Positions 10,766 through 30,831 of a stretch of DNA of 32,000 nt are shown here, piece by piece. The position numbers and the translations under genes are program-made. The stretch covers positions 2,250,001 to 2,282,000 of the forward strand of contig NC_009483.1 in NCBI RefSeq assembly GCF_000016745.1, given 5' to 3'. Positions within the stretch are counted from its first letter, which is position 1; the number at the start of each line of letters is the position of its first letter. The stretch is from Geotalea uraniireducens Rf4. GTDB taxonomy: Bacteria; Desulfobacterota; Desulfuromonadia; Geobacterales; Geobacteraceae. The notes beneath the pieces were generated by a model. That model was not told where the DNA came from and made no database searches. It saw nothing but the letters and a program-made list of their open reading frames with translations.

Positions 10766-10767
10766 AT

Positions 10768-10889: not shown

Positions 10890-10897
10890 TCTAATCT

Positions 10898-11070: not shown

Positions 11071-11100
11071 TCTAATCTTAGGAACGAATGGGTTACGAAT

Positions 11101-12192: not shown

Positions 12193-12225
12193 AATTACCA
12201 TTAATCCTGAAAAAAAGCATTTTAA

Positions 12226-12539
12226 CCACGAATTTTCACGAATTTACACGAATATACAAAATCTTGTAATGCAGAACAGCAGTGTCCGGTTAACTTTTTG
12301 CAGTCCGCAGCACTACCCCTCTCCCTAGCTCTCTCCCACAAGGGGAGAGGGGACTACAAGCTCCCCTCCCTCCGATGGGAGGGGCTGGGGGAGGGTGCAA
12401 TGCGCTGGTTTTAAGCACAAGAGAGATTCTGCAATTTTCTAACCGGACAATGCTGAATGCAGAACGTTTACCAAATCGGTGACCACTCAAAGCTTAATAA
12501 GGGGTTATAAACATTCGTGTTTATTCGTGTCATTCGTGG
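12226..12539. mobile_element. Outer MITE-like element (family B) between hypD and hypE, carrying a nested insertion
   Basis: About 28-bp imperfect terminal inverted repeats, each built from three CACGAAT/ATTCGTG units about 10 bp apart: CCACGAATTTTCACGAATTTACACGAAT at 12226-12253 and ATTCGTGTTTATTCGTGTCATTCGTGG at 12513-12539. Confidence 0.6.
12277..12455. mobile_element. Inner MITE-like element, same family A as 4501-4719
   Basis: Ends CAGCAGTGTCCGGTTAA (12277-12293) and CTAACCGGACAATGCTG (12439-12455) share the TGTCCGGTT core with the hybB/hybL element. Flanked by the 9-bp duplication AATGCAGAA (12268-12276 and 12456-12464). Confidence 0.75.
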
Positions 12540-12585
12540 CTAACTGTCGTTTTAGATTCAGCCTTTACTTAACAGGAGCACAAAC

Positions 12586-14891: not shown

Positions 14892-15097
14892 GACATACCT
14901 CCTTTAATGCAATTGAATTTTCACCTCTTGACGGTTGACGCGCTTGCTGTTGACTGTCGGTACTCACTGATAAGTATAGCCCTTATGTAAGGGGGCGCAA
15001 GTCGGGAATTGCGCGGCTGTTGACTGCGCAAAATTAATGAATCGGCATAAGTGCCCATCTATTGCATTAGCATGACTTTTTGCTACCATTTGAATAA

Positions 15098-18119: not shown

Positions 18120-18146
18120 GGATTTTCTTAAGTCGTATTTAATGAC

Positions 18147-18162
18147 TGGCACACTATGTGCT
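18147..18162 (+). promoter_or_regulatory. Sigma-54 -24/-12 promoter candidate upstream of the NtrC-type regulator gene
   Basis: TGGCACACTATGTGCT has GG at 18148-18149 and GC at 18160-18161 with the canonical 10-nt gap. The -12 element is GTGC rather than TTGC. Confidence 0.55.
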
Positions 18163-18244
18163 AAAGGGGTATGAGCAGACTATGGTGGTATTTACGTCTG
18201 GAAATGAAAAGAACTGTCTCAAGTTTTGGGAAAGCGAGATTACG

Positions 18245-19663
18245 ATGACAAATATGTCGACAAATAATGGTAACGATCAGTCGGTTCTGATCGTAGACGA
18301 TGATAGCGATGTTCTAAACGAATTACGTGTGATGCTCCTGTCCAACGGCATCAGGGATATTATCACTCTTTCCGACAGCAGTGCCGTTATTGCCGAGTTG
18401 GATAAAGGCGGCATTTCAGTGCTGCTCATGGACTGGATCATGCCCGGTCTTACGGGGTCGGAGCTGCTTCCCCTGATAGTCCAGCGCTTTCCGCATATTC
18501 CGGTCATCGTCATAACGGCGGTGAGCGACGTGCAGACGGTGGTCAACTGCATCAAGCAGGGCGCTTTCGACTATATTACCAAGCCGGTCGATTCCGATCG
18601 GCTGCTGTTGACCATTCAGAAGGCTTTCCATATCAGCGAGCTCGCCAGCCAGAACAGAATCCTCAGGAACTACCTGCTGGGAGAGCCGCTGGCCCATCCG
18701 GAACATTTCAGCGACATTGTGACATGCAGCGACAAGATGCAGGCGCTTTTCAAGTTGATCGAGACCATCGCACCCTCCCGTCACCCGGTATTGATCAATG
18801 GTGAAACCGGTGTCGGCAAGGAGCTGATTGCCAGATCCATTCATAAGGCGAGCGGATTCAAAGGGGCCTTTGTCCCGGTGAACGTGGCAGGTCTTGACGA
18901 CATCATGTTCAGCGATACCCTTTTCGGCCACAGGAAGGGTGCATTTACCGGCGCCAACGAGGCAAGGGAGGGGCTGATAGCAAAAGCCCAGGGCGGCACG
19001 TTGTTTCTGGACGAAATCGGCGACATGAGTCCCGAATCCCAGATCAAGCTTTTGCGGCTTTTGCAGGAGCATGAGTACTATCGCCTCGGTTCCGATGCCC
19101 TGGTAAAATCCGATGCCCGCATCATCGCCGCATCCAATCAGGATATAGACGCTTTGATTAACCAGGGAAAGTTCAGGCAGGACCTCTATCAGCGCCTCTG
19201 TTTCCACGAGCTCAAGATACCGCCTCTCAGGGAGCGGAGAGAGGATATCATGCCCCTCATCGAGCATTATGTGGCCAAGGCCGCTGCAATATATGAAAAG
19301 GACATTCCCGATTTTTCACGGGAACTGTATATAGCTTTGCAGGAGTACGATTTTCCGGGCAATGTCCGTGAATTGATCAGCAAGGTCAGCAGGGGGGTGG
19401 CGCATAGCCGGAGGGGGATACTTACCCTGCAGGACTTTCCGGGAGTGCCGGCCAAGATGAACTTGGGCAGACCTGCCGTCCGGGTTGCATCAGACGGGTT
19501 TTTCAAGCTTCAGGCAACCTTTGAGCAATTTCCGAATTTTGGCGACATCGAGCGGTTGCTCTCCGACGAGGCCCTGAAGGCGGCGAAAGGCAACAAGACA
19601 GCTGCCGCTGAATTGCTCGGCATTTCCCGCCCGACGTTGCAAAAAAAGCTGACGACAGGGTGA
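18245..19663 (+). CDS. Sigma-54-dependent response regulator (NtrC family: REC - AAA+ - Fis HTH)
   Basis: REC domain (VLIVDDD...LLMDWIMPGLTG...KP), Walker A GETGVGKE, the GAFTGA loop and a C-terminal HTH (AAELLGISRPTLQKKL). The start is uncertain: candidates are GTG 18158, ATG 18245 and ATG 18254. Confidence 0.9.
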   Translation: MTNMSTNNGNDQSVLIVDDDSDVLNELRVMLLSNGIRDIITLSDSSAVIAELDKGGISVLLMDWIMPGLTGSELLPLIVQRFPHIPVIVITAVSDVQTVVNCIKQGAFDYITKPVDSDRLLLTIQKAFHISELASQNRILRNYLLGEPLAHPEHFSDIVTCSDKMQALFKLIETIAPSRHPVLINGETGVGKELIARSIHKASGFKGAFVPVNVAGLDDIMFSDTLFGHRKGAFTGANEAREGLIAKAQGGTLFLDEIGDMSPESQIKLLRLLQEHEYYRLGSDALVKSDARIIAASNQDIDALINQGKFRQDLYQRLCFHELKIPPLRERREDIMPLIEHYVAKAAAIYEKDIPDFSRELYIALQEYDFPGNVRELISKVSRGVAHSRRGILTLQDFPGVPAKMNLGRPAVRVASDGFFKLQATFEQFPNFGDIERLLSDEALKAAKGNKTAAAELLGISRPTLQKKLTTG

Positions 19664-19875: not shown

Positions 19876-21453
19876 CTACGCCGCCTGCGACAGGGGGAGC
19901 CTTATGGTGAAAATCGTTCCCTTGCCGGGTTCGGATTGCACCTCAAACCTCCCCTGGTGCTCGATTACGATGAAGTTGGAGATATAGAGCCCCAGACCGC
20001 TCCCCCCGTTGTCGATGCGGGTGGAGAAGAACGGTTCGTAGATCCTTTCCAGATGTTCCGGCAGTATGCCTTCCCCCTCATCCTCCACGGAAATGAGCAC
20101 CTCACCGCATATCCGGTCGAGGACCGTCACGAGTTTGATGGTCCCCATCCCGTTGGGCATGGCCTGGATGGCGTTGAGGAGCAGGTTGATGACGACCTGT
20201 TCGAGCTGGTGCCGGTTGCCGGTGATGAGTGGCAGGTCGGGATCCGGTTCTTGGGCGATGGAAAGATTGCCGTGGTGGCCGTGGATACGGATAACTGCCA
20301 GGGCGTCGTTTATGATCTGGTTCACGTTCACGTCGGACTGGAACTCGTTCCGGTCGCCGAGGCTGTAGGCCCTGAGATTCTTGATTACCTGTTCAATCCT
20401 CTCCGTATTGCGGATGATGTTCATTCCGCTCCTGGCAACCTCCTCGCCGGCCATACTGAAAGGTATGCCGCCGATGCTGAAATCCCCTTCCTCCCTGGCA
20501 ACACCTTCCAGAATAGGCACCGTATCCTTCCAGGCCTTGTTCAGGTACTGTCCGGCAAGCCTTATTGCGCCGTTGGGGTTGTTGATCTCATGGGCCATGC
20601 TCGATACGAGTAGCCCCAGCGACGTCATCCGGTTCGTCTGGATCAATTTGGCCATGAGCTGTTTTCTTTCTTCACGTACTTCGAGTTTCATGGCGTTGAA
20701 CAATTCTTCCTGCAAACGACGGTTTTCAGCCTCGCGGCTCTCCAGGGAGGCGGCCAGGTCGTTGATCGCCATGGCGGCCTGTCCGGGTTCGTCATCGGAT
20801 TCCGTTGCGATTCTCACGGAATAGTCCCCCATTCCGATTGTTTTCACCCCCTGCATCAATGCATTGAACGAATGCGTGGCCTTTTTCAGCGCCAGGTAAC
20901 TGAGCGATAGCACCATCAGCCAGAAGAATAAGGCCATGGTTGCGGAGAATATGACCAGCTCGCGCGTCTTTTTGGGAAGGTCGTTCGAATTCAGGGCCAG
21001 TCGGACAGTGCCGAGAGCTTTTCCTGAAGTGGCGGGATTGCCTGTCAGAGCCGATTCTGCAGAGGCTGCCAGGCTCCCGGAATCGACGGTAACCGTTACG
21101 CTCAGGGTGGTCGCCGGTGTTGTGTTTTCTCGTTTTCTGAGTTCGACCAAGACCTTACCGTCGTTGTTGGTTATGACTATACCGACAACGTCGGGTTTCT
21201 GCGCCGTTTCGGCAGCAATCCGCTCCAGCGTCTCTTTGTCCTCTGCATATAGTGGTAGGCGAATGCTGTTGGCGAGCAGTGATGTCAGCAGGAGCGTTTT
21301 TTCAGAGGCCTGCAACCGGTAAGAGCGGATTTCATGTTCGACAAATAGCGCCGTAAAGAGGGTGGTAATAAGGGTGGTGATGATAGTGAAGACGGCAAAG
21401 AGTCTGAAGCGGAAGCTTTTATTGAGTTTCTGGAGACGGCTCACGATGGACAT
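19876..21453 (-). CDS. Sensor histidine kinase (TM - about 135-aa periplasmic domain - TM - HAMP - HisKA - HATPase)
   Basis: H-box SSMAHEINNP, N-box NLLLNAIQA and G-boxes EDEGEGI and GSGLGL. Two hydrophobic helices bracket the extracytoplasmic region. ATG 21453 has GGAG 6 nt upstream, whereas ATG 21465 has no RBS. Confidence 0.88.
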   Translation of the reverse strand: MSIVSRLQKLNKSFRFRLFAVFTIITTLITTLFTALFVEHEIRSYRLQASEKTLLLTSLLANSIRLPLYAEDKETLERIAAETAQKPDVVGIVITNNDGKVLVELRKRENTTPATTLSVTVTVDSGSLAASAESALTGNPATSGKALGTVRLALNSNDLPKKTRELVIFSATMALFFWLMVLSLSYLALKKATHSFNALMQGVKTIGMGDYSVRIATESDDEPGQAAMAINDLAASLESREAENRRLQEELFNAMKLEVREERKQLMAKLIQTNRMTSLGLLVSSMAHEINNPNGAIRLAGQYLNKAWKDTVPILEGVAREEGDFSIGGIPFSMAGEEVARSGMNIIRNTERIEQVIKNLRAYSLGDRNEFQSDVNVNQIINDALAVIRIHGHHGNLSIAQEPDPDLPLITGNRHQLEQVVINLLLNAIQAMPNGMGTIKLVTVLDRICGEVLISVEDEGEGILPEHLERIYEPFFSTRIDNGGSGLGLYISNFIVIEHQGRFEVQSEPGKGTIFTIRLPLSQAA

Positions 21454-21654
21454 GGCGTACTCCATGGATTGGGGGTTGAACCATATATGTGGGGAAGGCA
21501 GATGGTCATAAGTGAATTGATCAGGACGCCCCTTTAATTATCGGTTCAATCGTCAAATGAAGGCGGGTTTATTATTCCGTGCGTATTGGTTATAGTTCAT
21601 TTGCGCCGCAAAGGCAATAACTATGCGTGAATAGGGCCGCTCGATTTTTTTGGG

Positions 21655-22977
21655 CTATTCCGACAACGTCTCTTTTGTTGCAGCCCGTGAGGAGGGGTAT
21701 CGGAGATCCTGGAGGATGAACCGCTCCAGTGCGGCGTCGTAGAAATCCTTGCGGCAGTCCACTTCGTCGATGACGCCGTTTTTCAGGAGGGTGAGGTAGC
21801 GGCAGCCGCCGAAGCATAGAGGTAGGTAGGCGCAGTCGAGGCATTCATCGGTTTTCCAGACGTCCAGGTTGTGGGAAACGGAATAATCTTTGGTTCCTTC
21901 TGCAAGTGTACCAATGGAGAGCTCCGGCCACCCCATGAAGGCGGAGCATTTATAGAGTGAGCCGTCGTAGTTGACGACCAGGTGGTTGTCGAATTCGATG
22001 ACGCAGGCCGCCTGGGTCGGCTTCATGGTCTTGAAGCCCCGTTTCAGGATCTCTTCCCGCAGGTACGGGGCTGCCTCCGTCACCCACGGCTCGCTGCCGG
22101 AGGCGCAGCAGGCAGAGGTGTCGGCGCTGGCCGTCCTGCCGGACTTGGGCATGATCGGGGCGAATTGAACCTCGCCGAGCCGTTCGGGGGGGATTCCCTC
22201 GGCAATGATATGGTCGAGCACTCGGGGGAATTCCCGGTAGTTGTCGCGGAAAAAATTGCCGCCAAGCTGCAGCTCGATCAGGTCGAAGCTCGCCTTGATG
22301 TTGGCGACGATGATGTCGTAACTCCCGACGCCGGAGACGAAGGGGCGCTGGCGGTCGTGGATCTCGCGGGGGCCGTCGAGGGTGAGAATGGCGCCGGTGA
22401 GCCCCAATGGGAGAAGTTCTTCGACAACGGTCCGGGTGAGAAGGGTGCCGTTGGTAGTCATGCCGAAGGAGAATTTAGTTCCATGAGCTTGGGCCGCGTC
22501 CAGCAGAGGGCGGGCGATTTCCCGGATGAGGGGAAGGGAGAGGAGCGGTTCGCCGCCGTAGAAGCCGAGCTTCACCTCCCGGCCGCGGCCGATCTGCTCA
22601 CTGATCACGGTATCCACCAGGAGGCGGGCCGTTTCCCGGGTCATGTAGTGGCGTCCCCGGAAATGGTCTTCAAAGCAGTAGGGGCAGGCCAGGTTGCAGT
22701 CCAGGTTCATGACCACCTTTGCGTAGAACCGGTTGTTCCGGGCATTGGCCCTCTTCACCAGGGAGGTCATTGCTGCCTGCTCGGCCTCGGGGTCGTCGAT
22801 GAGGATTTCCAGGCGGCGCAGGGTCTCTCTCTCTGTGTCGGTGAGGGTCCCTTCCCGCGCCGCTTCGAGGCGGTCTCCAGAGAGTCGGACCACCGACCCC
22901 TTTCGGGTCGAGTAGAGGAGATACGAGCCCGGCCGGTCGGAGTCGTGGTAGATTTTCAGGTAGTGGGAAAGGGGCAT
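21655..22977 (-). CDS. Radical SAM/SPASM peptide maturase, paralog 1 (geopeptide-type maturase candidate)
   Basis: Start MPLSHYLKIY has GGAGG at 22984-22988. Radical SAM triad CNLACPYC and C-terminal SPASM motif CLDCAYLPLCFGGC (Cx2Cx5Cx3C), plus the upstream Cys pair ACVIEF...YKC. The N-terminal ~90 aa look RRE/PqqD-like. The 36 extra codons in the ORF track overlap the hairpin. Confidence 0.88.
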   Translation of the reverse strand: MPLSHYLKIYHDSDRPGSYLLYSTRKGSVVRLSGDRLEAAREGTLTDTERETLRRLEILIDDPEAEQAAMTSLVKRANARNNRFYAKVVMNLDCNLACPYCFEDHFRGRHYMTRETARLLVDTVISEQIGRGREVKLGFYGGEPLLSLPLIREIARPLLDAAQAHGTKFSFGMTTNGTLLTRTVVEELLPLGLTGAILTLDGPREIHDRQRPFVSGVGSYDIIVANIKASFDLIELQLGGNFFRDNYREFPRVLDHIIAEGIPPERLGEVQFAPIMPKSGRTASADTSACCASGSEPWVTEAAPYLREEILKRGFKTMKPTQAACVIEFDNHLVVNYDGSLYKCSAFMGWPELSIGTLAEGTKDYSVSHNLDVWKTDECLDCAYLPLCFGGCRYLTLLKNGVIDEVDCRKDFYDAALERFILQDLRYPSSRAATKETLSE

Positions 22978-22990
22978 GTAAAACCTCCAG

Positions 22991-23016
22991 GAAAAGAGGG
23001 GAGCACGCTCCCCTCT
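22991..23016 (-). terminator. Terminator-like hairpin between precursor A1 and maturase 1
   Basis: Minus-strand sense is AGAGGGGAGC-GT-GCTCCCCTCT, a perfect 10-bp arm, followed by TTTTCC and then immediately by the maturase RBS. Confidence 0.55.
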
Positions 23017-23051
23017 TCGCAGTTCGATGCTGCTGTGCTGTCTCTGCGGCC

Positions 23052-23159
23052 TCAGGTCCGATTGGAGCTGCCTGCGGTGCAGCAAGTGTTCAGTTCCTCA
23101 TGGTCGGCGCGCCCCTCGTCCAGAACCTCCAGTTCCATCTTCTTTTGCGTCGTTTCCAT
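23052..23159 (-). CDS. RiPP precursor peptide A1 (35 aa): METTQKKMELEVLDEGRADHEELNTCCTAGSSNRT
   Basis: Hand translation of the minus strand. GGAGG lies 7 nt upstream of the ATG at 23159, with the TGA stop at 23052-23054. It sits 74 nt upstream of maturase 1 and is paralogous to A2-A4. Confidence 0.8.
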   Translation of the reverse strand: METTQKKMELEVLDEGRADHEELNTCCTAGSSNRT

Positions 23160-23252
23160 AGTGCTACCTCCTCTGTTGAAATACACCCGGTGCGGGTGGA
23201 AAAACCACAAAAATTCGACAAAATCAGCCTGTTGTGTATAGATGCGCCGGCT
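23160..23252 (-). promoter_or_regulatory. Precursor promoter/leader module, truncated copy (A1)
   Basis: Shares with the other three copies the 5' leader ...GTCGAATTTTT(C)GTGGTTTTTCCACCC-loop-GGGTG-ATTTCAACAGAGGAGG and the TATACA/TATAGCA box. The distal TTAAGCAC part is missing. Confidence 0.5.
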
Positions 23253-23290
23253 CTTCGCAGATGAATGCTGTAGATCTCACTTAGCGGTCC

Positions 23291-23398
23291 TCAGGTCCGG
23301 CCGGAGTTGCCTCCGCCACAGCAACTGTTCAATTCCTCGTGGTCCGCTCGCCCCTCGTCCAGAACCTCCAGCTCCATCTTCTTTTGCGTCGTTTTCAT
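23291..23398 (-). CDS. RiPP precursor peptide A2 (35 aa): MKTTQKKMELEVLDEGRADHEELNSCCGGGNSGRT
   Basis: This is the C-terminal 35 codons of the 84-aa ORF-track entry. The internal ATG at 23398 is preceded by AAGGAGG, and the upstream part of the long ORF is the conserved non-coding module. Confidence 0.8.
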   Translation of the reverse strand: MKTTQKKMELEVLDEGRADHEELNSCCGGGNSGRT

Positions 23399-23504
23399 AG
23401 CACTACCTCCTTTGTTGAAATGCACCCGGATTGGGTGGAAAAACCACGAAAAATTCGACAAAATCAGCCTGCTGTGTATAGATGTGCCGGTGCTTAATAA
23501 GATA
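23399..23504 (-). promoter_or_regulatory. Precursor promoter/leader module (A2)
   Basis: Near-identical to 25081-25190 and 27021-27127 over the leader, the TATACA box and TTAAGCAC. Confidence 0.5.
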
Positions 23505-23585
23505 CATGTTAATGGTGAATCAACCAAACAGACGCTTCCTGCCAAGACAGGTAACTCACTTTGAGGGCTATTCCTGCGACGTCTC

Positions 23586-24896
23586 CTATGTTGCAGTCTG
23601 TGATGAGGGGTACTGGAGATCCTGGAGGATGAATCGCTCCAGTACTGAGTCGTAGAACGCCTTGCGGCAGTCTACTTCGTCGATGACGCCGTTTTTCATG
23701 AGGGGCATGAGGCGGCAGCCGCCGAAGCAGAGTGGGAGATAAGCGCACTCCAGGCATTCATCGGTTTTCCAGACGTCCAGATTGTGGGAGACTGAATAAT
23801 CCCTGGTTCCTTCTGTAAGGGAGCCGATGGAGAGCTCCGGCCACCCCATGAAGACGGGGCATTTATAGAGTGAGCCGTCGTAGTTGACGACCAGGTCGTT
23901 GTCGAATTCGATGGCGCAGGCCGCCTGGGTCGGCTTCATGGCCTTGAAGCCCTGTTTCAGTATCTCTTCCCGCAGGAGCGGGGCTGCCTCCGTCACCCAT
24001 GGCTCGCTGCCGGAGGTGCAGCAGGCGGAGGTGTCGGCGCCGGTTGTAACCCCGGATCCGGACTTGGGTATGATCGGGGCGAACTGAACTTCGCCGATCC
24101 GTTCGGGTGGGATTCCCTCGGCAATGAGATGGTCGAGCATCCGGGGGAATTCCCGGTAGTCGTCACGGGAATAATTGCCGCCAAGCTGCAGTTCTATCAT
24201 GTCGAAGGTCGCCTTGATGTTGGCGACGATGATGTCGTAGCTCCCCGCGCCGGAGACGAAGGGGCGCTGGCGGTCGTGGATCTCGCGGGGGCCGTCGAGG
24301 GTGATGATGGCGCCGGTAAGCCCCAAGGGGAGAAGTTCCTCGACAACGGAGCGGGTGAGTAGGGTGCCGTTGGTGGTCAGGACAAAGGAGAACTTCACCC
24401 CTTTTTCAGCGGCGGCGTCCCGGAGGGGGATGGCGATTTCCCGGATGAGGGGTAGGGAGAGGAGCGGTTCGCCGCCGTAGAAGCCGAGCTTCACATCGCG
24501 ACCGCGGCCGATCTGCTCGCGGATCACGGTATCCACCAGGAGGCGGGCCGTGTCTTGGGTCATGTAGTGGCGCCCCCGGAAATGGTCTTCGAAGCAGTAG
24601 GGGCAGGCCAGGTTGCAGTCAAGGTTCATGACCACCTTGGCGTAGAACCGGTTGCTCCGGGCATTGGCCCTCTTCACCAGGGAGGTCATGGCCTCCCGCT
24701 CGGCCGCAGGGTCGTCGATGAGGATTTCAAGGCGGCGCAGAGTCTCCCGCTCTGCGTCGGTGAGGGTCCCTTCCCGTGCCGCTTCAAGGCGGTCTCCAGA
24801 GAGCCGGACGACCGACCCCTTCCGGGTCGAGTAGAGGAGATACGAGCCCGGCCGGTCGGAGTCGGGGTATATTTTCAGGTAACGGGAAAGGATCAT
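23586..24896 (-). CDS. Radical SAM/SPASM peptide maturase, paralog 2
   Basis: Start MILSRYLKIY has GGAGG at 24904-24908. It has the same CNLACPYC triad, with SPASM motif CLECAYLPLCFGGC. It is collinear with paralog 1 along its whole length and ends 6 codons earlier (TAG where paralog 1 has AAA). Confidence 0.88.
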   Translation of the reverse strand: MILSRYLKIYPDSDRPGSYLLYSTRKGSVVRLSGDRLEAAREGTLTDAERETLRRLEILIDDPAAEREAMTSLVKRANARSNRFYAKVVMNLDCNLACPYCFEDHFRGRHYMTQDTARLLVDTVIREQIGRGRDVKLGFYGGEPLLSLPLIREIAIPLRDAAAEKGVKFSFVLTTNGTLLTRSVVEELLPLGLTGAIITLDGPREIHDRQRPFVSGAGSYDIIVANIKATFDMIELQLGGNYSRDDYREFPRMLDHLIAEGIPPERIGEVQFAPIIPKSGSGVTTGADTSACCTSGSEPWVTEAAPLLREEILKQGFKAMKPTQAACAIEFDNDLVVNYDGSLYKCPVFMGWPELSIGSLTEGTRDYSVSHNLDVWKTDECLECAYLPLCFGGCRLMPLMKNGVIDEVDCRKAFYDSVLERFILQDLQYPSSQTAT

Positions 24897-24910
24897 GCGT
24901 AAACCTCCAG

Positions 24911-24935
24911 GAAAAGAGGGGAGCCCGGCTCCCAT
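24911..24935 (-). terminator. Terminator-like hairpin between precursor A3 and maturase 2
   Basis: Minus-strand sense is GGGAGCC-G-GGCTCCC followed by CTCTTTTCC. It occupies the same position relative to the RBS as 22991-23016. Confidence 0.5.
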
Positions 24936-24972
24936 CTTCGCAGTTCAATACTGCTGTGTTGTCTCTGTGGCC

Positions 24973-25080
24973 TCAGGTCCGATTGGAGTTGCCAGCAGAA
25001 CAGCAAGTATTCAGCTCCTCGTGGTTCGCGCGCCCCTCGTCCAAAACCTCCAGCTCCATCTTTTTTTGCGTAGTTTTCAT
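24973..25080 (-). CDS. RiPP precursor peptide A3 (35 aa): MKTTQKKMELEVLDEGRANHEELNTCCSAGNSNRT
   Basis: Hand translation. RBS GAGGAG is upstream of the ATG at 25080, with the TGA stop at 24973-24975. It sits 76 nt upstream of maturase 2 and is absent from the ORF track. Confidence 0.8.
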   Translation of the reverse strand: MKTTQKKMELEVLDEGRANHEELNTCCSAGNSNRT

Positions 25081-25223
25081 AGCGCTAACTCCTCTGTTGA
25101 AATGCACCCGATATGGGTGGAAAAACCACGAAAAATTCGACAAAATCAGCCTGCTGTGCTATAAGGTGCGCCGGTGCTTAATGAGTATACTATCGGTTCG
25201 TATTCCGGTTTCTTGAGGGTTTT
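25081..25223 (-). promoter_or_regulatory. Precursor promoter/leader module, full-length copy (A3)
   Basis: Aligns with 27021-27160 over about 140 nt, including the distal TATCGG..GTATTCCGGTT.CTTGAGG stretch. Confidence 0.5.
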
Positions 25224-25310
25224 CGAACGTTTTTATCAGTTGCATGCACTATTACTCATAATTAACGACTTTTGTCAAGGTTTGGCGTATACGCCGTCGA
25301 TGAGGAAGCC

Positions 25311-26792
25311 ATGCTGTCCGTGAAAGAATTTGCAGTGTCCGGGGTCAAGTGGACCACAATGTCAACCGTCCTTATGTCGGCAATGGAATTCATCACGTTG
25401 ACTATCCTTGCGCGTCTGCTTACCCCGGTTGATTTCGGCTTGATGGCGATGACGATGGTCGTGCTGGGCTTCGCTGCTGGATACGCGGATATGGGCTTAA
25501 GTGCAGTGATTGTCCAGCGACAGGATGTCAGCCGAAGTCAGCTCTCCAGCCTTTATTGGCTTAATCTCATTGTCGGTACAGTGATCTTTGTGCTTATATG
25601 GGCGGTGTCACCGCTTGCGGTTGCTTTTTTTCACGAGCCGCTTCTTTACTGGTTAATGCCTGTAAGTGCTTTAAGCTTTGTCATTATGTCGATAGGCCAG
25701 CAGTTTTCATATTTGCTGGAGAAGGATCTCCGTTTTGATCTTCTTGCCAAGCAGGAAATTTGTGCATGCTTTTCTGGAAATATTGTGGCCATTGTCTGTG
25801 CTTTTTGCGGCCATGGGGTTTGGTCGCTTGTCTGGGGACATCTGGCCAAAGCGGGGATGATAACAGTTCTTCTTGTGTGGTCTGGCTGGTCTCAATGGGC
25901 ACCGATGTTCCACTTCAAATGGAGAGACTTGAGCGGTTATCTGAGCTTCGGTCTCTATCAAATGGGGGAGCGGAGTATCTTTAATTTCAATTCGCGAATT
26001 GATCAGATTTTGATTGGTAAGCTTCTGGGGGCGCAGGAACTTGGTTATTATAACTTTGCCGTCAACCAGATTTTACTGCCGTTGTACAGGATCAATCCGC
26101 TTCTATCGCGGATCATCTTTCCAGTGTTTGCACGTTTGCAACATGACATTCCAGATCTGCGACAGAGTTATCTCAAGTTGATGAAACTGCTCAGTGCGCT
26201 CAATGCACCGCTTCTGTTTGGTTTGGGGGCGATGGCACCGCTTCTGATACCGCTAACTTTTGGTGTCCAATGGACACCTGCAGTGCTGTTGGTGCAGATA
26301 CTTGTTTTCTCTAGCTTTATCCGCAGCACTGTTGAGCCTATCGGCAGTATTCTTTTGGCGAAGGGCCGGGCCGATATCAGCTTTCGATGGAACCTCGCCC
26401 AAGCTTTCATTACCACGCCGTTGATCTTCATTGGAGCAAAGCTTTATGGTACTTTGGGAGTTGCCGTGGCGCTTGTCCTGCTGACAATAAGTTATGCAAT
26501 GGCAAATTACATCTTCTTAGTAAGACCTTTTATCGGTCCATGTGGAAAGCCTTATGCGTTTTCCATCCTCAAAGTAACAGCTCTGGCGGTTATAATGGCA
26601 AGTATTGTCTTGCTTATGTCTTTGGCTGGCGGTCATTCAGTTATTTGGTTAATTGGGGAAGCATGTGTTGGCATGTTAATTTATCTGCTACTTCTTCGGA
26701 CCGTTGATCAGGCGTTTTTCTTTGAAGTGAAAGAGATGTTGATAGGTGGGGGGGGAATACGTCAAGAATATGGAGTGGATTCTGCCCAATGA
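25311..26792 (+). CDS. MOP-superfamily exporter (Wzx/PST-type polysaccharide-biosynthesis/flippase family)
   Basis: GAGGAAG precedes the ATG at 25311. About 490 aa and very hydrophobic, with at least 12 predicted TM helices. The N-terminal pattern ILARLLTPVDFGLMAM is typical of the family. G+C is visibly lower than in the neighbouring genes. Confidence 0.8.
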   Translation: MLSVKEFAVSGVKWTTMSTVLMSAMEFITLTILARLLTPVDFGLMAMTMVVLGFAAGYADMGLSAVIVQRQDVSRSQLSSLYWLNLIVGTVIFVLIWAVSPLAVAFFHEPLLYWLMPVSALSFVIMSIGQQFSYLLEKDLRFDLLAKQEICACFSGNIVAIVCAFCGHGVWSLVWGHLAKAGMITVLLVWSGWSQWAPMFHFKWRDLSGYLSFGLYQMGERSIFNFNSRIDQILIGKLLGAQELGYYNFAVNQILLPLYRINPLLSRIIFPVFARLQHDIPDLRQSYLKLMKLLSALNAPLLFGLGAMAPLLIPLTFGVQWTPAVLLVQILVFSSFIRSTVEPIGSILLAKGRADISFRWNLAQAFITTPLIFIGAKLYGTLGVAVALVLLTISYAMANYIFLVRPFIGPCGKPYAFSILKVTALAVIMASIVLLMSLAGGHSVIWLIGEACVGMLIYLLLLRTVDQAFFFEVKEMLIGGGGIRQEYGVDSAQ

Positions 26793-26870
26793 GAAACAAA
26801 AAATTCCGGAGATTGGGCTTTAAGCATGTTTTATTACCTTCAACGATGTGCCCTCTGTCAACTTGATGCC

Positions 26871-26894
26871 AAAAAAAGGGGAGCAAAGCTCCCC
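26871..26894 (-). terminator. Rho-independent terminator of precursor A4
   Basis: Minus-strand sense is GGGGAGC-TTT-GCTCCCC followed by TTTTTTT, 28 nt after the A4 stop. Confidence 0.8.
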
Positions 26895-26921
26895 CGGGGT
26901 GATGATGCTGCGGCCTTTAAT

Positions 26922-27020
26922 TCACTGACGTGAAGTACCGCCTGAACAACAAGAATTAAGCTCTTCCATGTCGTCGCGTCCTTCGTCGAGGACTACCAGT
27001 TCCCTATTTTCCGTTTCCAT
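26922..27020 (-). CDS. RiPP precursor peptide A4 (32 aa, stand-alone): METENRELVVLDEGRDDMEELNSCCSGGTSRQ
   Basis: This is the C-terminal 32 codons of the 86-aa ORF-track entry. AAGGAGG lies 8 nt upstream of the ATG at 27020. It has the same LDEGR...EELNSCC architecture as A1-A3. Confidence 0.75.
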   Translation of the reverse strand: METENRELVVLDEGRDDMEELNSCCSGGTSRQ

Positions 27021-27160
27021 TTCTGCTACCTCCTTTGTTGAAATTACCCGGTGTGGGTTGTTAAAAGTATTAAATTCGACAAAATCAGCCTGCTGTGCTA
27101 TAAGACGCCAGTGCTTAATGAGTATATTATCGGCACGTATTCCGGTTACTTGAGGATTTA
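27021..27160 (-). promoter_or_regulatory. Precursor promoter/leader module (A4), shared divergently with the TonB-dependent receptor gene
   Basis: Conserved TATAGCACAGCAGGCTGATTTTGTCGAATTT and TTAAGCAC are present. The + strand end of the module supplies GAGGA just before the receptor TTG start. Confidence 0.5.
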
Positions 27161-29017
27161 TTGTATTTTTTTCGCTTTCCATTACTGATTGTCCTCCTCG
27201 TCTTTTGTATTGTGGGTGTCTCGCCGTTCACTGCCGGTGCGAGCGAAGACGATCAGACCCTCTCCCTCTTCTCTGGAGGGGATCAGCCGCTTGTTTCCTC
27301 TGGCCGCACCCCCCGCCCCACTTCCCGGATTGCCGAAAACGTCACCGTCATCACCGCCGAACAGATCGCGCTTCTAAATGCCCACACCTTGGCCGATGTA
27401 CTGAACACTGTCCCCGGCTTCCAGCTCGAACAGGTCCAGACCCCTGGCAGTTTTACGTTCTTTTCCCTTCAGGGCGCGACTGATGCCCAGGCCCATGTAC
27501 AGGTACTGATCGACGGCGTTCCCCAGAACAACCTGCTGCAAGGTGCGGCTGATGTGGGGCTGATCCCTGTTCAACAGATCGACCGGGTGGAGATCATCAA
27601 GGGTGCAGCCTCGGCCGCCTGGGGGCAGGCTCTCGGTGGAGTGATTAACGTTATCACCAAAGCGCCTGAGAGTGAGAGGGTGATTGGCGGCACGGCCGCT
27701 GCCTCCATGGGTGAACGTCTCACCACCGACATGCGGGGGGAGTTAAGCGGCACCGTCAGGCGCTTCGGATACTACCTTTCCGGCGGTAACCTCCATTCTA
27801 ACGGCCTTCTCCCCGGCAACCGGATAAACAATAGCAATGTTTATGGCAAGTTCACCTACGATCTTCCCAGCAAGGGGAGCCTCATGCTTGGCTTCGATTT
27901 TCGTAAAGCTGACCGGGGGCTCGATGAAACGTTGCTCTATCATGACACAACGGAAGCCCATCGAGCATATACATTCCTGACGTTCACCTATCCTCTAACC
28001 GAGCGACTGACGCTGGAATTGGCAGCCAGAGCTAGTCACCGGAATGACGAGACGCTGTTGGGGCATTTCGATCAGGGATTGGTTGTTCTTGACAATAATT
28101 TTACGGTACGTGAATCAAGACGGGGTGGGAGCGCCAAGCTCGTCTGGGGGGACAGTCTCACCAACCTGGTGGCCGGGGTGGAGTATGAACATGGTGAAAC
28201 AGAGCAATGGGATGCCTTAGTTCCCAATTCCCCTTTCCTGACCGATCGGACCATGGACCGTTGGGCGACATCCGCCAACGGCACCTTCTCTTACGGAGCA
28301 CTGACCATCCTTCCCGGCGTCCGTTTTGACCACACCGGCCTGAGTAGCGATGCCTTGAGCTATACCCTGGGGGCTACCTACCGTCTTACGGAGAAGACCG
28401 TGCTGCGTGGCTATGGTGCCAGGGGGTACAGTCTTCCCAACGCCATATGGAATAACGGACCACAGAAAGTCTGGACTGTGCAGGCCGGGGCTGAAACCGA
28501 GGCGGTTCCTTATCTCTGGCTGAAAGGGACTTTCTTTTACAATGACACATGGAATGTTGAGGTCGGCGATTTCAATCTCAGCTCTCCTGGTGTTACCCTC
28601 AGGGAGCAGATCAAGCAAGGATTCGAGCTTGAGGCACGAACCATTCCCTTGTACGGCTTTTCCCTGGCTGGCGGCTATACCTTTACTGACGCCAGAGACG
28701 GGGAAACGAAGGAACGCCTTAAATCCGTACCTGAACACGGGGCAAAGCTGGCCCTGAATTACGACAACATTAGCCTGGGGCTGCGCGGGGTAATGACCGG
28801 CAATTACGTTCAGTGGAACGCTCCAATCGGCAATAACGCCAAAGATTCGGCAGTCATCTGGGACCTGCACCTGACGAAGATGCTGTTTCCTGCCTGGGAG
28901 TTGTCCCCGGAGTTGTTCTTCTCGGTCCATAACCTTTTTAACGGCTCTCAGTATCAAAGTGATTCGTTCAAGAACGCCCCCCGCTGGCTGGAAGGTGGAG
29001 TGAGGTGGCGATTTTGA
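27161..29017 (+). CDS. TonB-dependent outer-membrane receptor
   Basis: Signal peptide ...PFTAGA/SEDD. Plug motifs ENVTVITAEQI and IDRVEIIKGAASAAWG, a beta-barrel-like repetitive C-terminal part and a terminal aromatic residue (RWRF). The TTG start is uncertain. Confidence 0.85.
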   Translation: MYFFRFPLLIVLLVFCIVGVSPFTAGASEDDQTLSLFSGGDQPLVSSGRTPRPTSRIAENVTVITAEQIALLNAHTLADVLNTVPGFQLEQVQTPGSFTFFSLQGATDAQAHVQVLIDGVPQNNLLQGAADVGLIPVQQIDRVEIIKGAASAAWGQALGGVINVITKAPESERVIGGTAAASMGERLTTDMRGELSGTVRRFGYYLSGGNLHSNGLLPGNRINNSNVYGKFTYDLPSKGSLMLGFDFRKADRGLDETLLYHDTTEAHRAYTFLTFTYPLTERLTLELAARASHRNDETLLGHFDQGLVVLDNNFTVRESRRGGSAKLVWGDSLTNLVAGVEYEHGETEQWDALVPNSPFLTDRTMDRWATSANGTFSYGALTILPGVRFDHTGLSSDALSYTLGATYRLTEKTVLRGYGARGYSLPNAIWNNGPQKVWTVQAGAETEAVPYLWLKGTFFYNDTWNVEVGDFNLSSPGVTLREQIKQGFELEARTIPLYGFSLAGGYTFTDARDGETKERLKSVPEHGAKLALNYDNISLGLRGVMTGNYVQWNAPIGNNAKDSAVIWDLHLTKMLFPAWELSPELFFSVHNLFNGSQYQSDSFKNAPRWLEGGVRWRF

Positions 29018-29901
29018 GAGCGCTACTTTCCTTCATACTTGCCCTATATATCTTCGCTGCTGCACCGGCCCTTGCGACAGACCTGCTCATCGTCCAGAGC
29101 ACGCGGCACTCAAGCTACACCGAGGCTTTGAACGGCTTTAGAAACGCTTGCAACGCCAGGAGCCGGGTGGTGGTCCTGGATGACTACGCCGAGGTCGATG
29201 TGGCCCGCCTCGTCCGGGAGGAGCAACCCGTTGCGATCCTGGCCGTGGGTGATTCCGCTCTGGATGCGGTGAAGAAGATCCGCCGCGTCCCGATCGTCTC
29301 TCTCATGTCTATCAGCCCCTCCACCGGGAAGAGCATGCCGCCCAATGTGACCGGCGTGAGAATGACGATTTCTCCCGAGCGCTACATGACCCTCTTCAAC
29401 GCCCTTCGGTTGGACCGGGTCGGTGTGATTTACAACACCGCCCGCAGCGGCGCATACCTGCGGCGCGCCCGTCAATCAGCCGAACAAGCCGGTGTCGATC
29501 TGGTGTTGCGCGAGGTGGACAATCCCCGTGAAACGTCGCATCAGCTGGCAAGTTTGAAGGGTAAAGTGGACGCCCTTTGGCTCCTTCCCGACTCGACTGC
29601 GGTGACCCGGGAAACGGTGGAAGCCTATTTCTTCTTCTCCATGGAGCAGAGAAAGCCGGTCATTGCCTTCTCTGCGGTCTATCTCTCCCTGGGGGCTGCT
29701 GCCACTCTGGAAATCGACCGCCACGGCATGGGGATGCAGGCGGGTGAAGTCGCCAATCGCCTGCTGAAAGGGGCTTCACCGGCCGAAATACCGTTTAGCG
29801 ACCCCCTCGATATCTTCCTGAAAACCAACCCGAGCGTCATCCGCAAGCTCGAACTCAACCAGCAGGGGCTGAGCAAGCTCACCTTCGAAGGGCGCGATTG
29901 A
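29005..29901 (+). CDS. Periplasmic ABC_sub_bind-type (COG2984-like) binding protein
   Basis: GTG start overlaps the receptor stop by 13 nt. Signal peptide ...AAAPALA/TD. The pattern RVGVIYN...KVDALWLLPDSTAV...KPVIAFS...EVANRLLKGASPAEIPF is typical of this family (from memory). There is no adjacent permease or ATPase. Confidence 0.7.
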   Translation: MAILRALLSFILALYIFAAAPALATDLLIVQSTRHSSYTEALNGFRNACNARSRVVVLDDYAEVDVARLVREEQPVAILAVGDSALDAVKKIRRVPIVSLMSISPSTGKSMPPNVTGVRMTISPERYMTLFNALRLDRVGVIYNTARSGAYLRRARQSAEQAGVDLVLREVDNPRETSHQLASLKGKVDALWLLPDSTAVTRETVEAYFFFSMEQRKPVIAFSAVYLSLGAAATLEIDRHGMGMQAGEVANRLLKGASPAEIPFSDPLDIFLKTNPSVIRKLELNQQGLSKLTFEGRD

Positions 29902-30083: not shown

Positions 30084-30267
30084 TCCCCCCCAGTTTCTCC
30101 CCCCTTCATGCTCCTGCCCCGTGCTGTCGCTGCCGCATCGGATAATAATTAGAACGTGAATATTCAGCATGTTACGGCCGAATACCGGTGTATTGTCCTA
30201 CATTTGAACACTTTTGGCATGTAACGTGATGTTGTATATGAATAAAACATTCAAGGAAGTGTCATAT

Positions 30268-30831
30268 ATGGATCAATTGCTTGTAAAACCGACCATTATT
30301 CATCCCCTCTTTATCGACGGTGTGTTGGCGCCTGAGTCTGGCGGGGTGATCGGCATGACCATATGCCCGGGCAAGAAAGACAACGGCTATTTTTCCGGTT
30401 TCTGGGAACGGAACCTCGACGCTGACCTTCAGGCGATCAAGGACTGGGGCGCTGTGGCGCTAGTGAGCCTGATTGAAGGGTTTGAATTCAGGTTTCTCCA
30501 GGTCCAGGACCTGCCGGAAAAAGCGGGTATCTTCGGCCTGCGCTGGATGCATCTGCCGATCCCGGAAGCGAGCATTCCCGATCAGTCCTTCGAGGAAATA
30601 TGGCAGGAAGCTGGTCCGCAGCTCCGTCAGTGGCTCAAAGAGGGAAAGAAGATCGTCCTTCACTGTAATGAGGGATTCGGCCGAACCGGCATCATTGCCG
30701 CCAGGTTGCTTGTGGAATTAGGCGTAGAGCCGGATGATGCGATACATTCCACCCGGAAGGCCCGCAGCGGCGCTATTGTAAACGTGCTTCAGGAGAAATA
30801 TGTCCGGCAATGCAAATCGTCTGAGGCTTGA
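30268..30831 (+). CDS. Cys-based (CX5R) protein phosphatase, dual-specificity/PTP-like
   Basis: AAGGAAG lies 8 nt upstream of the ATG at 30268. Active-site signature HCNEGFGRTG (HCxxGxxR[ST]). Confidence 0.75.
   Translation: MDQLLVKPTIIHPLFIDGVLAPESGGVIGMTICPGKKDNGYFSGFWERNLDADLQAIKDWGAVALVSLIEGFEFRFLQVQDLPEKAGIFGLRWMHLPIPEASIPDQSFEEIWQEAGPQLRQWLKEGKKIVLHCNEGFGRTGIIAARLLVELGVEPDDAIHSTRKARSGAIVNVLQEKYVRQCKSSEA

Follow-up and report, generated by a model that had tools for sequence, protein, structure and literature searches.

The closest described counterpart of the locus examined here is the geopeptide family, a known gene cluster catalogued in NCBIfam as a peptide model (TIGR04229, "geopeptide") and an enzyme model (TIGR04280, "geopeptide radical SAM maturase"). 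Both are bioinformatic definitions only; no experimental paper was found, and a literature search across 8 million papers and preprints returned no mention of geopeptide, TIGR04229, or TIGR04280. The chemistry and function of the family therefore appear uncharacterised, as a first-pass annotation of this DNA had supposed, and the family is a good target for experiments. The solved structure closest to the maturase, by both sequence and fold, is CteB of the thermocellin system (a SCIFF ranthipeptide; 5WGG/5WHY). In gene content, the combination of a RiPP precursor with a TonB-dependent receptor and a periplasmic binding protein mirrors MbnA, MbnT, and MbnE of methanobactin operons. There is also precedent for a TonB-dependent transporter within radical SAM RiPP clusters (PMC11002830, PMC9389541), and a Geobacter SPASM enzyme, SbtM, converts Cys or Sec in glycine-rich motifs to thiooxazoles (PMC9204691, PMC11002830).

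The window analysed is a 32,000-nucleotide stretch of Geotalea uraniireducens Rf4. Judged from sequence, it holds the geopeptide RiPP locus of Geotalea (Geobacter) uraniireducens in an amplified form specific to the strain: a member of the TIGR04229/TIGR04280 families with no difference in kind, and one already annotated, as RefSeq names all six genes geopeptide or geopeptide radical SAM maturase. Four precursor genes (A1–A4) and two paralogous radical SAM/SPASM maturases (B1 and B2) lie on the minus strand:

21655-22977, minus strand: maturase B1, 440 aa; TIGR04280 660.1 bits; 100% identical to ABQ26151.1
23052-23159, minus strand: precursor A1, 35 aa; TIGR04229 40 bits; RefSeq WP_083764841.1
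23291-23398, minus strand: precursor A2, 35 aa; TIGR04229 42.8 bits; RefSeq WP_083764843.1
23586-24896, minus strand: maturase B2, 436 aa; TIGR04280 650.1 bits (cut-off 400); RefSeq ABQ26152.1 / WP_011938855.1
24973-25080, minus strand: precursor A3, 35 aa; TIGR04229 38.8 bits; RefSeq WP_083764845.1 "geopeptide"
26922-27020, minus strand: precursor A4, 32 aa, METENRELVVLDEGRDDMEELNSCCSGGTSRQ; TIGR04229 41.5 bits; AAGGAGG 7 nt 5' of the ATG; RefSeq WP_083764847.1 "geopeptide" is an over-extended, 86-aa version

The four peptides score 38.8–42.8 bits, all above the curated TIGR04229 cut-off of 30 and thus resembling geopeptides beyond chance, and the two enzymes score 650–660 bits against a TIGR04280 cut-off of 400. 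The first-pass annotation had proposed this pairing; the HMM searches (four of four peptides, two of two enzymes above cut-off) and the RefSeq names bear it out, its features were found at the coordinates it gave, and its translations of A1–A4 match exactly. The preferred reading, an inferred mechanism given slightly better than even confidence as a whole, is that the geopeptide carries a Cys-derived crosslink and is recaptured, or sensed, from the cell exterior.

Among A1–A3, codon differences within the leader are mostly synonymous (synonymous to non-synonymous, 5:2, 8:2, and 7:2), and those within the tail are nearly all non-synonymous (0:4, 1:2, and 0:3), as expected if the genes are translated; this substitution pattern indicates that the geopeptide ORFs are under coding selection. 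The GGAGG reported before every ATG is present for A4 and fails for A3, which has GAGGAG. The statement that nearly every residue after the Cys-Cys pair differs was likewise overstated, as the A1–A3 tails are invariant at G+3, S+5, R+7, and T+8. Across 46 peptides, only a hydrophobic-hydrophobic-D/E-x-G leader motif, the Cys-Cys pair, and a tail of 7–11 residues are constant, with 8–12 residues between the leader Gly and the pair. An Arg lies near the C-terminus in 39 of the 46, the tail usually ending Arg-x, and is absent from the other seven tails; no acceptor side chain is conserved in all tails. A single peptide ORF lies immediately 5' of the maturase in ~19 of 20 genome loci and many metagenome loci. 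It is very improbable that the ORFs are not genes or not substrates and that the enzymes mature a protein encoded elsewhere. The SPASM fold is indeed common to anSME and QhpD-type protein maturases, but this would leave unexplained the curated HMM hits of all four peptides, the coding-type substitutions and strong Shine-Dalgarno sites, and the repeated placement, across dozens of divergent loci, of a peptide gene directly 5' of the maturase gene; the anSME model, moreover, gives only 71 bits where its cut-off is 349.

Every precursor gene is preceded by a conserved box and a strong Shine-Dalgarno of its own, with a hairpin and T-tract before the enzyme gene:

23160-23255, minus strand: conserved upstream region of A1, with the box CAGGCTGATTTTGTCGAATTT, a small hairpin, and a Shine-Dalgarno
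23399-23495 (A2), 25081-25222 (A3), and 27021-27159 (A4): copies of this region, defined by four-way alignment and repeat families D5–D7
22994-23017, minus strand: GC-rich hairpin and T-tract in the A1/B1 gap, AAGAGGGGAGC-GT-GCTCCCCTCTT
24919-24933, minus strand: GC-rich hairpin and T-tract in the A3/B2 gap, a putative attenuator or partial terminator
26871-26895, minus strand: intrinsic-terminator-like hairpin and T-run 3' of A4, GGGGGAGC-TTT-GCTCCCC then TTTTTTT

A related promoter-like box and hairpin occur in other loci, and most of the 21 related loci that were folded have an equivalent of the peptide/maturase hairpin.

Both maturases carry the CNLACPYC and CxxCx5Cx3C motifs originally described. 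The cysteines of the CX3CX2C site (C94, C98, and C101) and eight others are conserved family-wide, consistent with a full SPASM domain bearing two auxiliary clusters. The proposed N-terminal RRE was not detectable by sequence searches; it is supported only by the AF2 model of B1 (mean pLDDT 87.7), in which a predicted RRE-like domain at about residues 7–80 has a beta3-alpha3 topology (strands 7–11, 18–23, and 29–33; helices 34–42, 47–55, and 63–80), and by the full-length fold match of that model to CteB (5WHY/5WGG, TM 0.64–0.69). CteB is also the best PDB sequence match (E = 1e-25, ~21% identity). The next-best NCBIfam matches are Cys-directed peptide maturases, including the thioether-forming PapB, QhpD, and SCIFF families: the PapB and QhpD models give 117–137 bits (PapB 137 against a cut-off of 340) and the SCIFF-maturase model 113 bits against 425, with far lower scores for the sactisynthase, cyclophane, and anSME models. 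All of these scores against characterised thioether enzyme models lie far below the family cut-offs, which counts against the preferred reading; no product has been observed, and the crosslink chemistry is wholly inferred from homology.

A possible though clearly less probable account is that the maturase alters the Cys-Cys pair itself and does not bridge it to the tail in sactionine or ranthionine fashion; candidates would include a ring between Cys and a neighbour, a thiooxazole like that of SbtM (-4 Da), formylglycine or thioaldehyde, and epimerisation. The Cys-Cys pair alone is invariant, no acceptor residue is conserved, SbtM offers a precedent in Geobacter (PMC9204691, PMC11002830), and the fold matches of B1 also include anSME and the epimerase EpeE. 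However, the closest sequence and fold relatives form thioethers (CteB; the PapB, QhpD, and SCIFF families), and the tail is tightly limited to 7–11 residues, which suggests that it participates in a ring.

Comparison with related loci indicates that the four-peptide, two-enzyme layout arose in this lineage or strain by amplification of an ancestral locus with one gene of each kind: close relatives each have one peptide and one maturase, and nearly all other genomes encode one peptide only. The position of A4, divergent from the TonB-dependent receptor gene, is ancestral. The A2 tail (CCGGGNSGRT) exactly matches that of the sole peptide translated from the closest relative, L070. Between A4 and A3 lies a further gene:

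25272-26792, plus strand: MOP-family (Wzx-like) flippase; PRK10459 609.7 bits; Pfam Polysacc_synt_3

Its GC content is 0.46–0.48, against 0.54–0.63 in adjacent bins, and it is missing from all 62 of the related loci. It is probably a low-GC insertion rather than an ancestral part of the system, and at most a candidate exporter. Many radical SAM RiPPs are bacteriocins, and the several paralogous precursors with divergent tails in G. uraniireducens could be read as an arms race in which the receptor belongs to target cells. This seems improbable, given that other genomes nearly all have a single peptide, that the producer itself encodes the receptor, which is conserved together with the peptide, and that the loci examined showed neither an immunity gene nor a C39-peptidase ABC exporter or leader protease.

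The extent originally assigned to the locus (21655-27020) proved too narrow, as conserved partners lie on both sides of it:

18146-18162, plus strand: sigma-54-type promoter-like site, CTGGCACACTATGTGCT, 5' of the regulator gene; 11 of 13 consensus positions
~18242-19663, plus strand: sigma-54-dependent response regulator (Pfam receiver, AAA+, and HTH_8); its true start is likely the ATG at 18242
19876-21465, minus strand: HAMP histidine kinase (Pfam HAMP, HisKA, HATPase_c), directly 3' of B1
27161-29017, plus strand: TonB-dependent receptor, 618 aa (Pfam Plug and TonB_dep_Rec_b-barrel)
29005-29901, plus strand: PF04392 (ABC_sub_bind) periplasmic binding protein, Pfam 74.5 bits, with a signal peptide; its gene overlaps the 3' end of the receptor gene

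The receptor falls in the plug plus 22-strand-barrel size class and is without an N-terminal signalling extension; the kinase has two predicted membrane segments on either side of a ~130-aa periplasmic domain. Across 55 maturase loci, clustering and tblastn place a receptor homologue beside the maturase in 43 (nearly all absences being short contigs); 32 have the PF04392 protein, 23 have the kinase, and 13 have the regulator next to the kinase, most absences again reflecting short contigs. The same gene set is kept through three different gene orders, and in G. daltonii the maturase stop is overlapped by the kinase start. This constant pairing with an outer-membrane uptake receptor suggests release of the peptide followed by its renewed uptake or sensing.

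Around the peptide and maturase genes, neither an exporter nor a leader protease is conserved, which leaves secretion hypothetical. This would suit a modified peptide that stays cytoplasmic, the receptor, binding protein, and kinase sensing some other external ligand and being merely co-regulated, as would the co-transcription of the kinase with peptide and maturase in Geotalea. We consider this doubtful, however: linkage to the outer-membrane importer persists through three gene orders and 35–64% enzyme divergence, and such persistence is difficult to account for unless peptide and receptor are directly connected in function.

A Cys-derived product that captures a soft metal extracellularly, re-enters as a complex through the receptor and binding protein, and is tuned to metal status by the kinase and regulator is unlikely too, though somewhat less so. 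Methanobactin operons would be the model for such re-entry of a metal-peptide complex; the Cys-Cys pair is invariant in the 46 peptides; the best matches of the receptor are metal-cofactor and siderophore receptors (BtuB, FepA, CntO), through the plug domain only; and in a deep clade, the genes for receptor, peptide, maturase, and binding protein all run in one direction, with no kinase evident. Yet thioethers at both Cys residues would be poor metal ligands, and neither a Fur-type or ECF/anti-sigma metal regulator nor an inner-membrane ABC importer was seen in the loci examined; in the window, no ABC permease or ATPase lies beside the PF04392 gene. Coordinates in L001 indicate that the binding protein is translationally coupled to the histidine kinase, which fits sensing better than transport.

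A recaptured or sensed crosslinked peptide would arise as follows. The hairpin would keep precursor transcripts in excess of enzyme transcripts, and the RRE-like domain would hold the short leader strand (E-V/I-L-D-E-G), placing the invariant Cys-Cys pair, 8–12 residues downstream, in the active site. One thiolate may bind auxiliary cluster I, as does the substrate Cys of CteB; a 5'-deoxyadenosyl radical would abstract hydrogen, after which Cys sulfur would become joined through one or two thioether crosslinks to a carbon in the 7–11-residue tail or within the Cys-Cys pair. The small cyclic product would then exit the cell, be returned across the outer membrane by its dedicated receptor, and be captured in the periplasm by the PF04392 protein, the histidine kinase relaying it to the sigma-54 activator. 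The product would be a self-made signal rather than an antibiotic, with a metal carrier less likely. The only conserved sigma-54 promoter precedes the regulator gene itself, with equivalent sites in L070 (14926, minus strand) and L072 (14384, minus strand) and none 5' of the peptides or receptor, which gives no support to feedback regulation of the peptide genes.

Compared with known systems, the Geotalea locus differs from its own family in copy number, with four peptides and two enzymes as opposed to one of each in relatives. The maturase shares with CteB an N-terminal RRE (predicted here), a radical SAM core, and a SPASM domain with two auxiliary clusters, and CteB likewise acts on a Cys-containing peptide encoded upstream. 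However, the six Cys of SCIFF peptides, and their different leader, set them apart from geopeptides, in which a single Cys-Cys pair is followed by a 7–11-aa tail; SCIFF loci are clostridial and are not known to have receptor and binding-protein partners. PapB (freyrasin), QhpD, and NxxcB build thioethers onto carbons in Asp, Glu, or Asn side chains; though the N-[ST]-C-C of the window peptides formally matches the N-x-x-C motif, geopeptides are without a conserved Asn or acidic acceptor near the Cys pair. Methanobactin operons likewise set a small Cys-containing RiPP precursor beside a dedicated outer-membrane importer and periplasmic binding protein, but their MbnBC enzymes are unrelated to the radical SAM/SPASM maturases, MbnE is of another family than PF04392, and regulation is by an ECF sigma factor rather than a kinase and sigma-54 regulator; geopeptide loci also have no conserved MATE exporter. 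Bacteroidetes clusters (B. thetaiotaomicron Itf and an uncharacterised Parabacteroides cluster) similarly encode a TonB-dependent transporter alongside a radical SAM enzyme and its short precursor, and one of them includes a two-component system (PMC11002830, PMC9389541); they also encode further enzymes (YcaO) and a C39-peptidase ABC exporter, install C-C crosslinks, and have unrelated precursors.

The minus strand of the window carries four geopeptide precursor genes (A1-A4) and two paralogous radical SAM/SPASM maturases (B1 and B2, 436-440 aa), in the order A4, terminator, convergent flippase (on the plus strand), A3, hairpin, B2, A2, A1, hairpin, B1, histidine kinase:

23052-23159, minus strand, geopeptide precursor A1
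23291-23398, minus strand, geopeptide precursor A2
24973-25080, minus strand, geopeptide precursor A3
26922-27020, minus strand, geopeptide precursor A4, 32 aa, with its own AAGGAGG Shine-Dalgarno (SD) site
21655-22977, minus strand, maturase B1
23586-24896, minus strand, maturase B2
26871-26895, minus strand, terminator after A4
24919-24933, minus strand, hairpin and T-tract between A3 and B2
22994-23017, minus strand, hairpin and T-tract between A1 and B1
19876-21465, minus strand, histidine kinase, after B1
25272-26792, plus strand, MOP/Wzx-type flippase between the A4 and A3 units
23211-23231, 23451-23471, 25133-25153 and 27072-27092, minus strand, 21-nt box CAGGCTGATTTTGTCGAATTT, about 50-70 nt upstream of the peptide starts

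The four small open reading frames transcribed in the first-pass annotation are exact translations of these precursor genes, and both maturases contain the CNLACPYC and CxxCx5Cx3C motifs it described. Its claim of a GGAGG ahead of every peptide needs one amendment: a strong SD precedes all four, and the sequence at A3 is GAGGAG. That annotation had also named a geopeptide/geopeptide maturase family. The assignment was correct and the genes are already catalogued, since the NCBI and RefSeq names match: B1 is 100% identical to ABQ26151.1/WP_011938854.1 of Geotalea (formerly Geobacter) uraniireducens, both enzymes bear the NCBI name 'geopeptide radical SAM maturase', and A1, A2, and A3 are the RefSeq 'geopeptide' entries WP_083764841, WP_083764843, and WP_083764845. 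In NCBIfam/Pfam profile searches, all four peptides exceeded the curated cut-off of 30 bits for the geopeptide model TIGR04229 (A1, 40.0; A2, 42.8; A3, 38.8; A4, 41.5 bits), and B1 and B2 scored 660.1 and 650.1 bits against the maturase model TIGR04280 (curated cut-off 400 bits), with alignments covering model positions 1-427 of 428. Judged by these scores, the resemblance of peptides and enzymes to the family is not chance, and the locus shows every testable feature of the family. The geopeptide finding is thus not new, as curated models exist and the window genes already carry these names. Full-text literature searches returned no paper for 'geopeptide', TIGR04229, or TIGR04280, and no experimental characterisation was found; the family was likewise absent from literature retrieved on Geobacter with SPASM/ranthipeptide and on TonB paired with either PF04392 or radical SAM RiPPs. 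RefSeq enters A4 as an 86-aa 'geopeptide' (WP_083764847.1; window 26922-27182, minus strand) starting from the ATG at 27182, which overlaps the start of the receptor gene (27161, plus strand) on the opposite strand. This start is probably wrong and the 32-aa form is favoured, because the latter, with its own AAGGAGG site, agrees with the family alignment.

The A3-B2 and A1-B1 units form a 1.92-kb segmental duplication with 85-91% DNA identity. In each, the precursor directly precedes its maturase, with which it shares a strand, at a spacing of 74-76 nt, a layout also found in related loci. Codon differences among A1-A3 are mostly synonymous in the leader (synonymous to non-synonymous, 5:2, 8:2, and 7:2) and nearly all non-synonymous in the tail (0:4, 1:2, and 0:3), which supports translation, a constrained leader, and a freer tail. 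An alignment further revealed that all four peptides have in common some 100-140 nt of upstream sequence, in which the invariant box CAGGCTGATTTTGTCGAATTT is followed by a small hairpin (CACCC..GGGTG) and then the SD. Other family loci have a TAGCA...TTTGTnTAT box in a similar place, with a hairpin differing in sequence, and the box and hairpin are probably a shared promoter plus 5'-UTR stem. No known RNA element emerged in these regions: Rfam gave no match at the gathering threshold across the whole window, including the conserved peptide 5' regions, and folding z-scores of the 5'-UTR hairpins, between about -3.5 and +0.9, are not thermodynamically unusual. The flippase (PRK10459, 610 bits) was considered as a conserved exporter and rejected on its low GC (0.46-0.48 vs. 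0.54-0.63 in neighbouring bins) and its absence from all 62 related loci; no polysaccharide genes lie near it. It is an insertion rather than a component of the family, and may have been acquired horizontally.

Related loci place this arrangement in context. The closest relative is a groundwater MAG (L070) whose maturase is 85% identical; both it and Geotalea daltonii FRC-32 (L072) retain the outer synteny of PNPOx, PilZ, and HypE/D/C/F genes and share the order binding protein (minus), receptor (minus), one peptide (plus), one maturase (plus), kinase (plus), and regulator (minus). The G. daltonii maturase and kinase genes overlap, stop to start, and the single-copy geopeptide of this species is:

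MENETVELEVLDEGQSNEEENNTCCMSGLTRIF

The A2 tail is that of the L070 peptide, CCGGGNSGRT. As both relatives have one peptide and one maturase, the four-peptide, two-enzyme island is a strain-specific amplification. The flank also contains [NiFe]-hydrogenase maturation genes (window 8265-13596, plus strand):

8265-10535, plus strand, hypF
11059-12192, plus strand, hypD
12586-13596, plus strand, hypE-like AIRS gene

This hyp synteny is common to G. daltonii and L070 and missing from other geopeptide loci, so the association is probably coincidental. Elsewhere in the flank, a 490-aa ORF without a Pfam or NCBIfam match (16509-17981, plus strand) adjoins a class-III aminotransferase (15364-16647); a gene without a Pfam match occupies the corresponding position in L070 (15189-16517). 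A dual-specificity/PTP-like phosphatase (Pfam Tc-R-P, DSPc; 30214-30831, plus strand) lies downstream of the binding-protein gene, as it does in L070, and is absent from that position in more distant loci.

Across the wider family, the genome scan identified 20 true loci, and about 30 others came from metagenomes, with enzyme identity falling as low as 35-47%. Two blocks of scanned loci (L021-L069 and L106-L153) were left out as other radical SAM families, mostly at 24-32% identity, together with a few short fragments of family members. The 20 genome loci all belong to Geobacteraceae, Desulfuromonadaceae, or Desulfuromonadales, with two exceptions (one MAG labelled 'Deltaproteobacteria' and one metagenome-assembled chromosome); the window and every named homologue bar these exceptions fall within Geobacter and relatives (Desulfuromonadia). 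The most divergent clade (L086-L102, e.g., L093 1651-5979) has enzymes 40-47% identical, and one of its members, L102, has a MacB-type ABC exporter nearby.

Almost every family locus has a single peptide, and the survey comprised 46 peptides from 43 loci. These are 27-41 aa long and begin with a leader motif, hydrophobic-hydrophobic-(D/E)-x-G (typically E-V/I-L-D-E-G), often preceded by just 3-4 residues; a spacer of 8-12 residues (mode 9) leads to a Cys-Cys pair invariant in all 46, and the tail, rich in Ser, Ala, Gly, and Thr, is without exception 7-11 residues. An Arg stands 1-3 residues from the C-terminus in 39 peptides; the remaining seven have hydrophobic tails without Arg, so no acceptor side chain is universally conserved, and Arg was rejected as a universal crosslink acceptor. 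Several peptides of the more divergent loci have such tails, e.g., CCFGAFIPLTG and CCLSAFVILWW. An Asn-Cys crosslink of the N-x-x-C (NxxcB-like) type was also set aside: the window peptides fit the motif, but the Asn is not conserved in the family. With conservation limited to the Cys-Cys pair and to tail length, the reaction would target a backbone alpha carbon or a position set by distance and not by residue type, or would take place within the pair itself. In most loci the peptide stop is separated from the SD of the maturase by a GC-rich hairpin and T-tract; a hairpin between precursor and enzyme is the classic arrangement yielding more precursor than enzyme.

At least 95% of the 122 homologues compared retain maturase residues C94/98/101 together with C291, C325, C344, C379, C382, C388, C392, and C408; the CX3CX2C and SPASM motifs are present, and the TIGR04085 SPASM model scores 53 bits. 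These residues make up the radical SAM site and a complete SPASM domain with capacity for two auxiliary clusters. An AF2 model (mean pLDDT 87.7, pTM 0.86) places three strands and three helices (beta3-alpha3) in residues 7-80 with pLDDT above 90, a predicted topology matching that of an RRE; residues 1-90 gave no Pfam or PDB sequence match, and support for a putative RRE accordingly comes from the predicted structure only. CteB itself carries an RRE. Foldseek ranked CteB (5WHY/5WGG) first over the full length, followed by TigE, anSME, SuiB, ChlB, and SkfB, and CteB is also the best PDB sequence match (E = 1e-25). After TIGR04280, the next NCBIfam models score 104-140 bits (CefB, nif11-type, PapB, TIGR04463, QhpD, Clo7bot, SCIFF, and CcpM maturases), with RumMC sactisynthase (48 bits), YhhB cyclophane (57), and anSME (71) lower, all far below their own cut-offs. 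By these comparisons the maturase is related to the Cys-directed thioether group and a member of no characterised family. Both copies contain SACC(A/T)SGSEPW (window 22105-22140 and 24020-24055, minus strand; residues about 285-298), which resembles the substrate CC(T/S)(A/G)G, with model pLDDT below 50 at residues 279-290. A pseudo-substrate role was rejected, as family members generally have Gly in place of the first Cys and conserve the second (C291) alone; the segment is probably an auxiliary-cluster ligand loop.

The main new point of the analysis is the conserved set of a receptor, a binding protein, a kinase, and a regulator around these genes. Partners were counted by ORF clustering in genome loci and by tblastn over 62 family loci or fragments, 55 of them with a detectable maturase. 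A TonB-dependent receptor (homologue of window 27161-29017) adjoins the maturase in 43 of the 55, and nearly all absences fall at the edges of contigs or on short ones. The periplasmic binding protein of family PF04392 (window 29005-29901) occurs in 32, a HAMP histidine kinase in 23, and a sigma-54 response regulator in 13. The set is retained under three gene orders. In one (e.g., L001), peptide and maturase diverge from the receptor, binding protein, and kinase genes; in Geotalea, the kinase instead goes with peptide and maturase, and these three diverge from receptor and binding protein; in the deepest clade (e.g., L093), receptor, peptide, maturase, and binding protein are co-directional and operon-like. 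Throughout that clade (L086-L102), the PF04392 gene is seen where the sequence reaches far enough. Regulation was addressed by a promoter scan, which located one site upstream of the regulator gene:

18146-18162, plus strand, sigma-54-type promoter-like site CTGGCACACTATGTGCT, matching 11 of 13 consensus positions

Equivalents at 14926 (minus) in L070 and 14384 (minus) in L072 make it conserved in three Geotalea loci. The site overlaps the GTG of the longest regulator ORF, so the true regulator start is probably the ATG at 18242. These data suggest that the regulator gene is itself sigma-54-dependent and possibly autoregulated. As no such site lies upstream of the peptides or the receptor, direct sigma-54 autoinduction of the peptide genes is unsupported.

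The mechanism we infer from this architecture runs as follows. The precursor would have a promoter of its own, with read-through past the hairpin supplying smaller amounts of enzyme and, in Geotalea, of kinase. An RRE-like domain would bind the E-V-L-D-E-G strand, and the roughly fixed spacer would position the Cys-Cys pair in the active site. On the model of CteB, a thiolate of the substrate would bind auxiliary cluster I, and radical chemistry would form one or two thioethers. We consider thioether formation at the Cys-Cys pair about evenly balanced between true and false. Other Cys chemistry, such as formylglycine or a thiooxazole like that of Geobacter SbtM (PMC9204691, PMC11002830), is possible but the less probable course.

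Conservation of the receptor and binding protein argues for a product with an extracytoplasmic role that is recovered into the periplasm. We tentatively propose, as a rather doubtful whole, that it is an extracellular signal or metal shuttle made by a new Cys-Cys radical SAM reaction (other than the usual sactionine or ranthionine, such as ring closure inside the pair or onto a backbone carbon) and read back through a circuit of uptake by the TonB-dependent receptor, then the PF04392 protein, the HAMP kinase, and the sigma-54 regulator. The main alternative for function, a metal carrier with a logic like that of methanobactin MbnT/MbnE, would draw on the same receptor and binding protein; coupling of the binding protein to a kinase without an ABC importer (no ABC permease or ATPase stands beside it in the window, L070, or L072) favours sensing of a self-produced signal over nutrition. 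No exporter, leader protease, or immunity gene is conserved across geopeptide neighbourhoods, and any extracellular reading is weakest on this point, as regards the exporter and the protease. The product is unlikely to be an antibiotic, given that neither an immunity gene nor an exporter was found, that most genomes have a single peptide, and that the producer encodes the receptor.

If the proposed signal circuit is true, Gram-negative bacteria would have a RiPP autoinducer circuit that relies on active uptake across the outer membrane. Metal reduction and extracellular electron transfer in sediments are driven by Geobacter and its relatives, and we know of no peptide signal or RiPP characterised from them. 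The design is simple and testable—a substrate of 27-41 aa with an invariant Cys-Cys pair, acted on by a single enzyme—and the receptor, binding protein, and two-component module conserved alongside point to a physiological read-out; solving the family could yield both new radical SAM chemistry and a cell-cell signal or metal-acquisition peptide in a group of environmental importance. The value lies in the geopeptide family as an experimental target rather than in the window as a discovery.

Compared with known systems, the maturase is a relative but not a member of the PapB (137 bits vs. a cut-off of 340), SCIFF/CteB (113 vs. 425), and QhpD (117 vs. 453) families. The possibility raised in the first-pass annotation that the enzymes are anSME, PQQ, or mycofactocin maturases does not hold: the anSME model falls short of its cut-off (71 vs. 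349 bits), PqqE is a distant fold match only, and the window contains no sulfatase, PqqA, or MftA genes. In the methanobactin operon, the receptor and binding-protein logic is the sole shared feature, MbnB/MbnC (DUF692 and partner) being absent among the window ORFs searched. Precedents for radical SAM RiPP clusters with a TonB-dependent transporter come from Bacteroidetes: the Itf cluster, and one in Parabacteroides that also has a two-component system (PMC11002830, PMC9389541); unlike the geopeptide loci, these include C39-peptidase ABC exporters, and their precursors are unrelated to geopeptides. Among sactisynthases, the RumMC model scores 48 bits against 720 and SkfB is a distant fold match; with no conserved acceptor side chain, geopeptide sequences would be compatible with an alpha-carbon link of the sactipeptide type.
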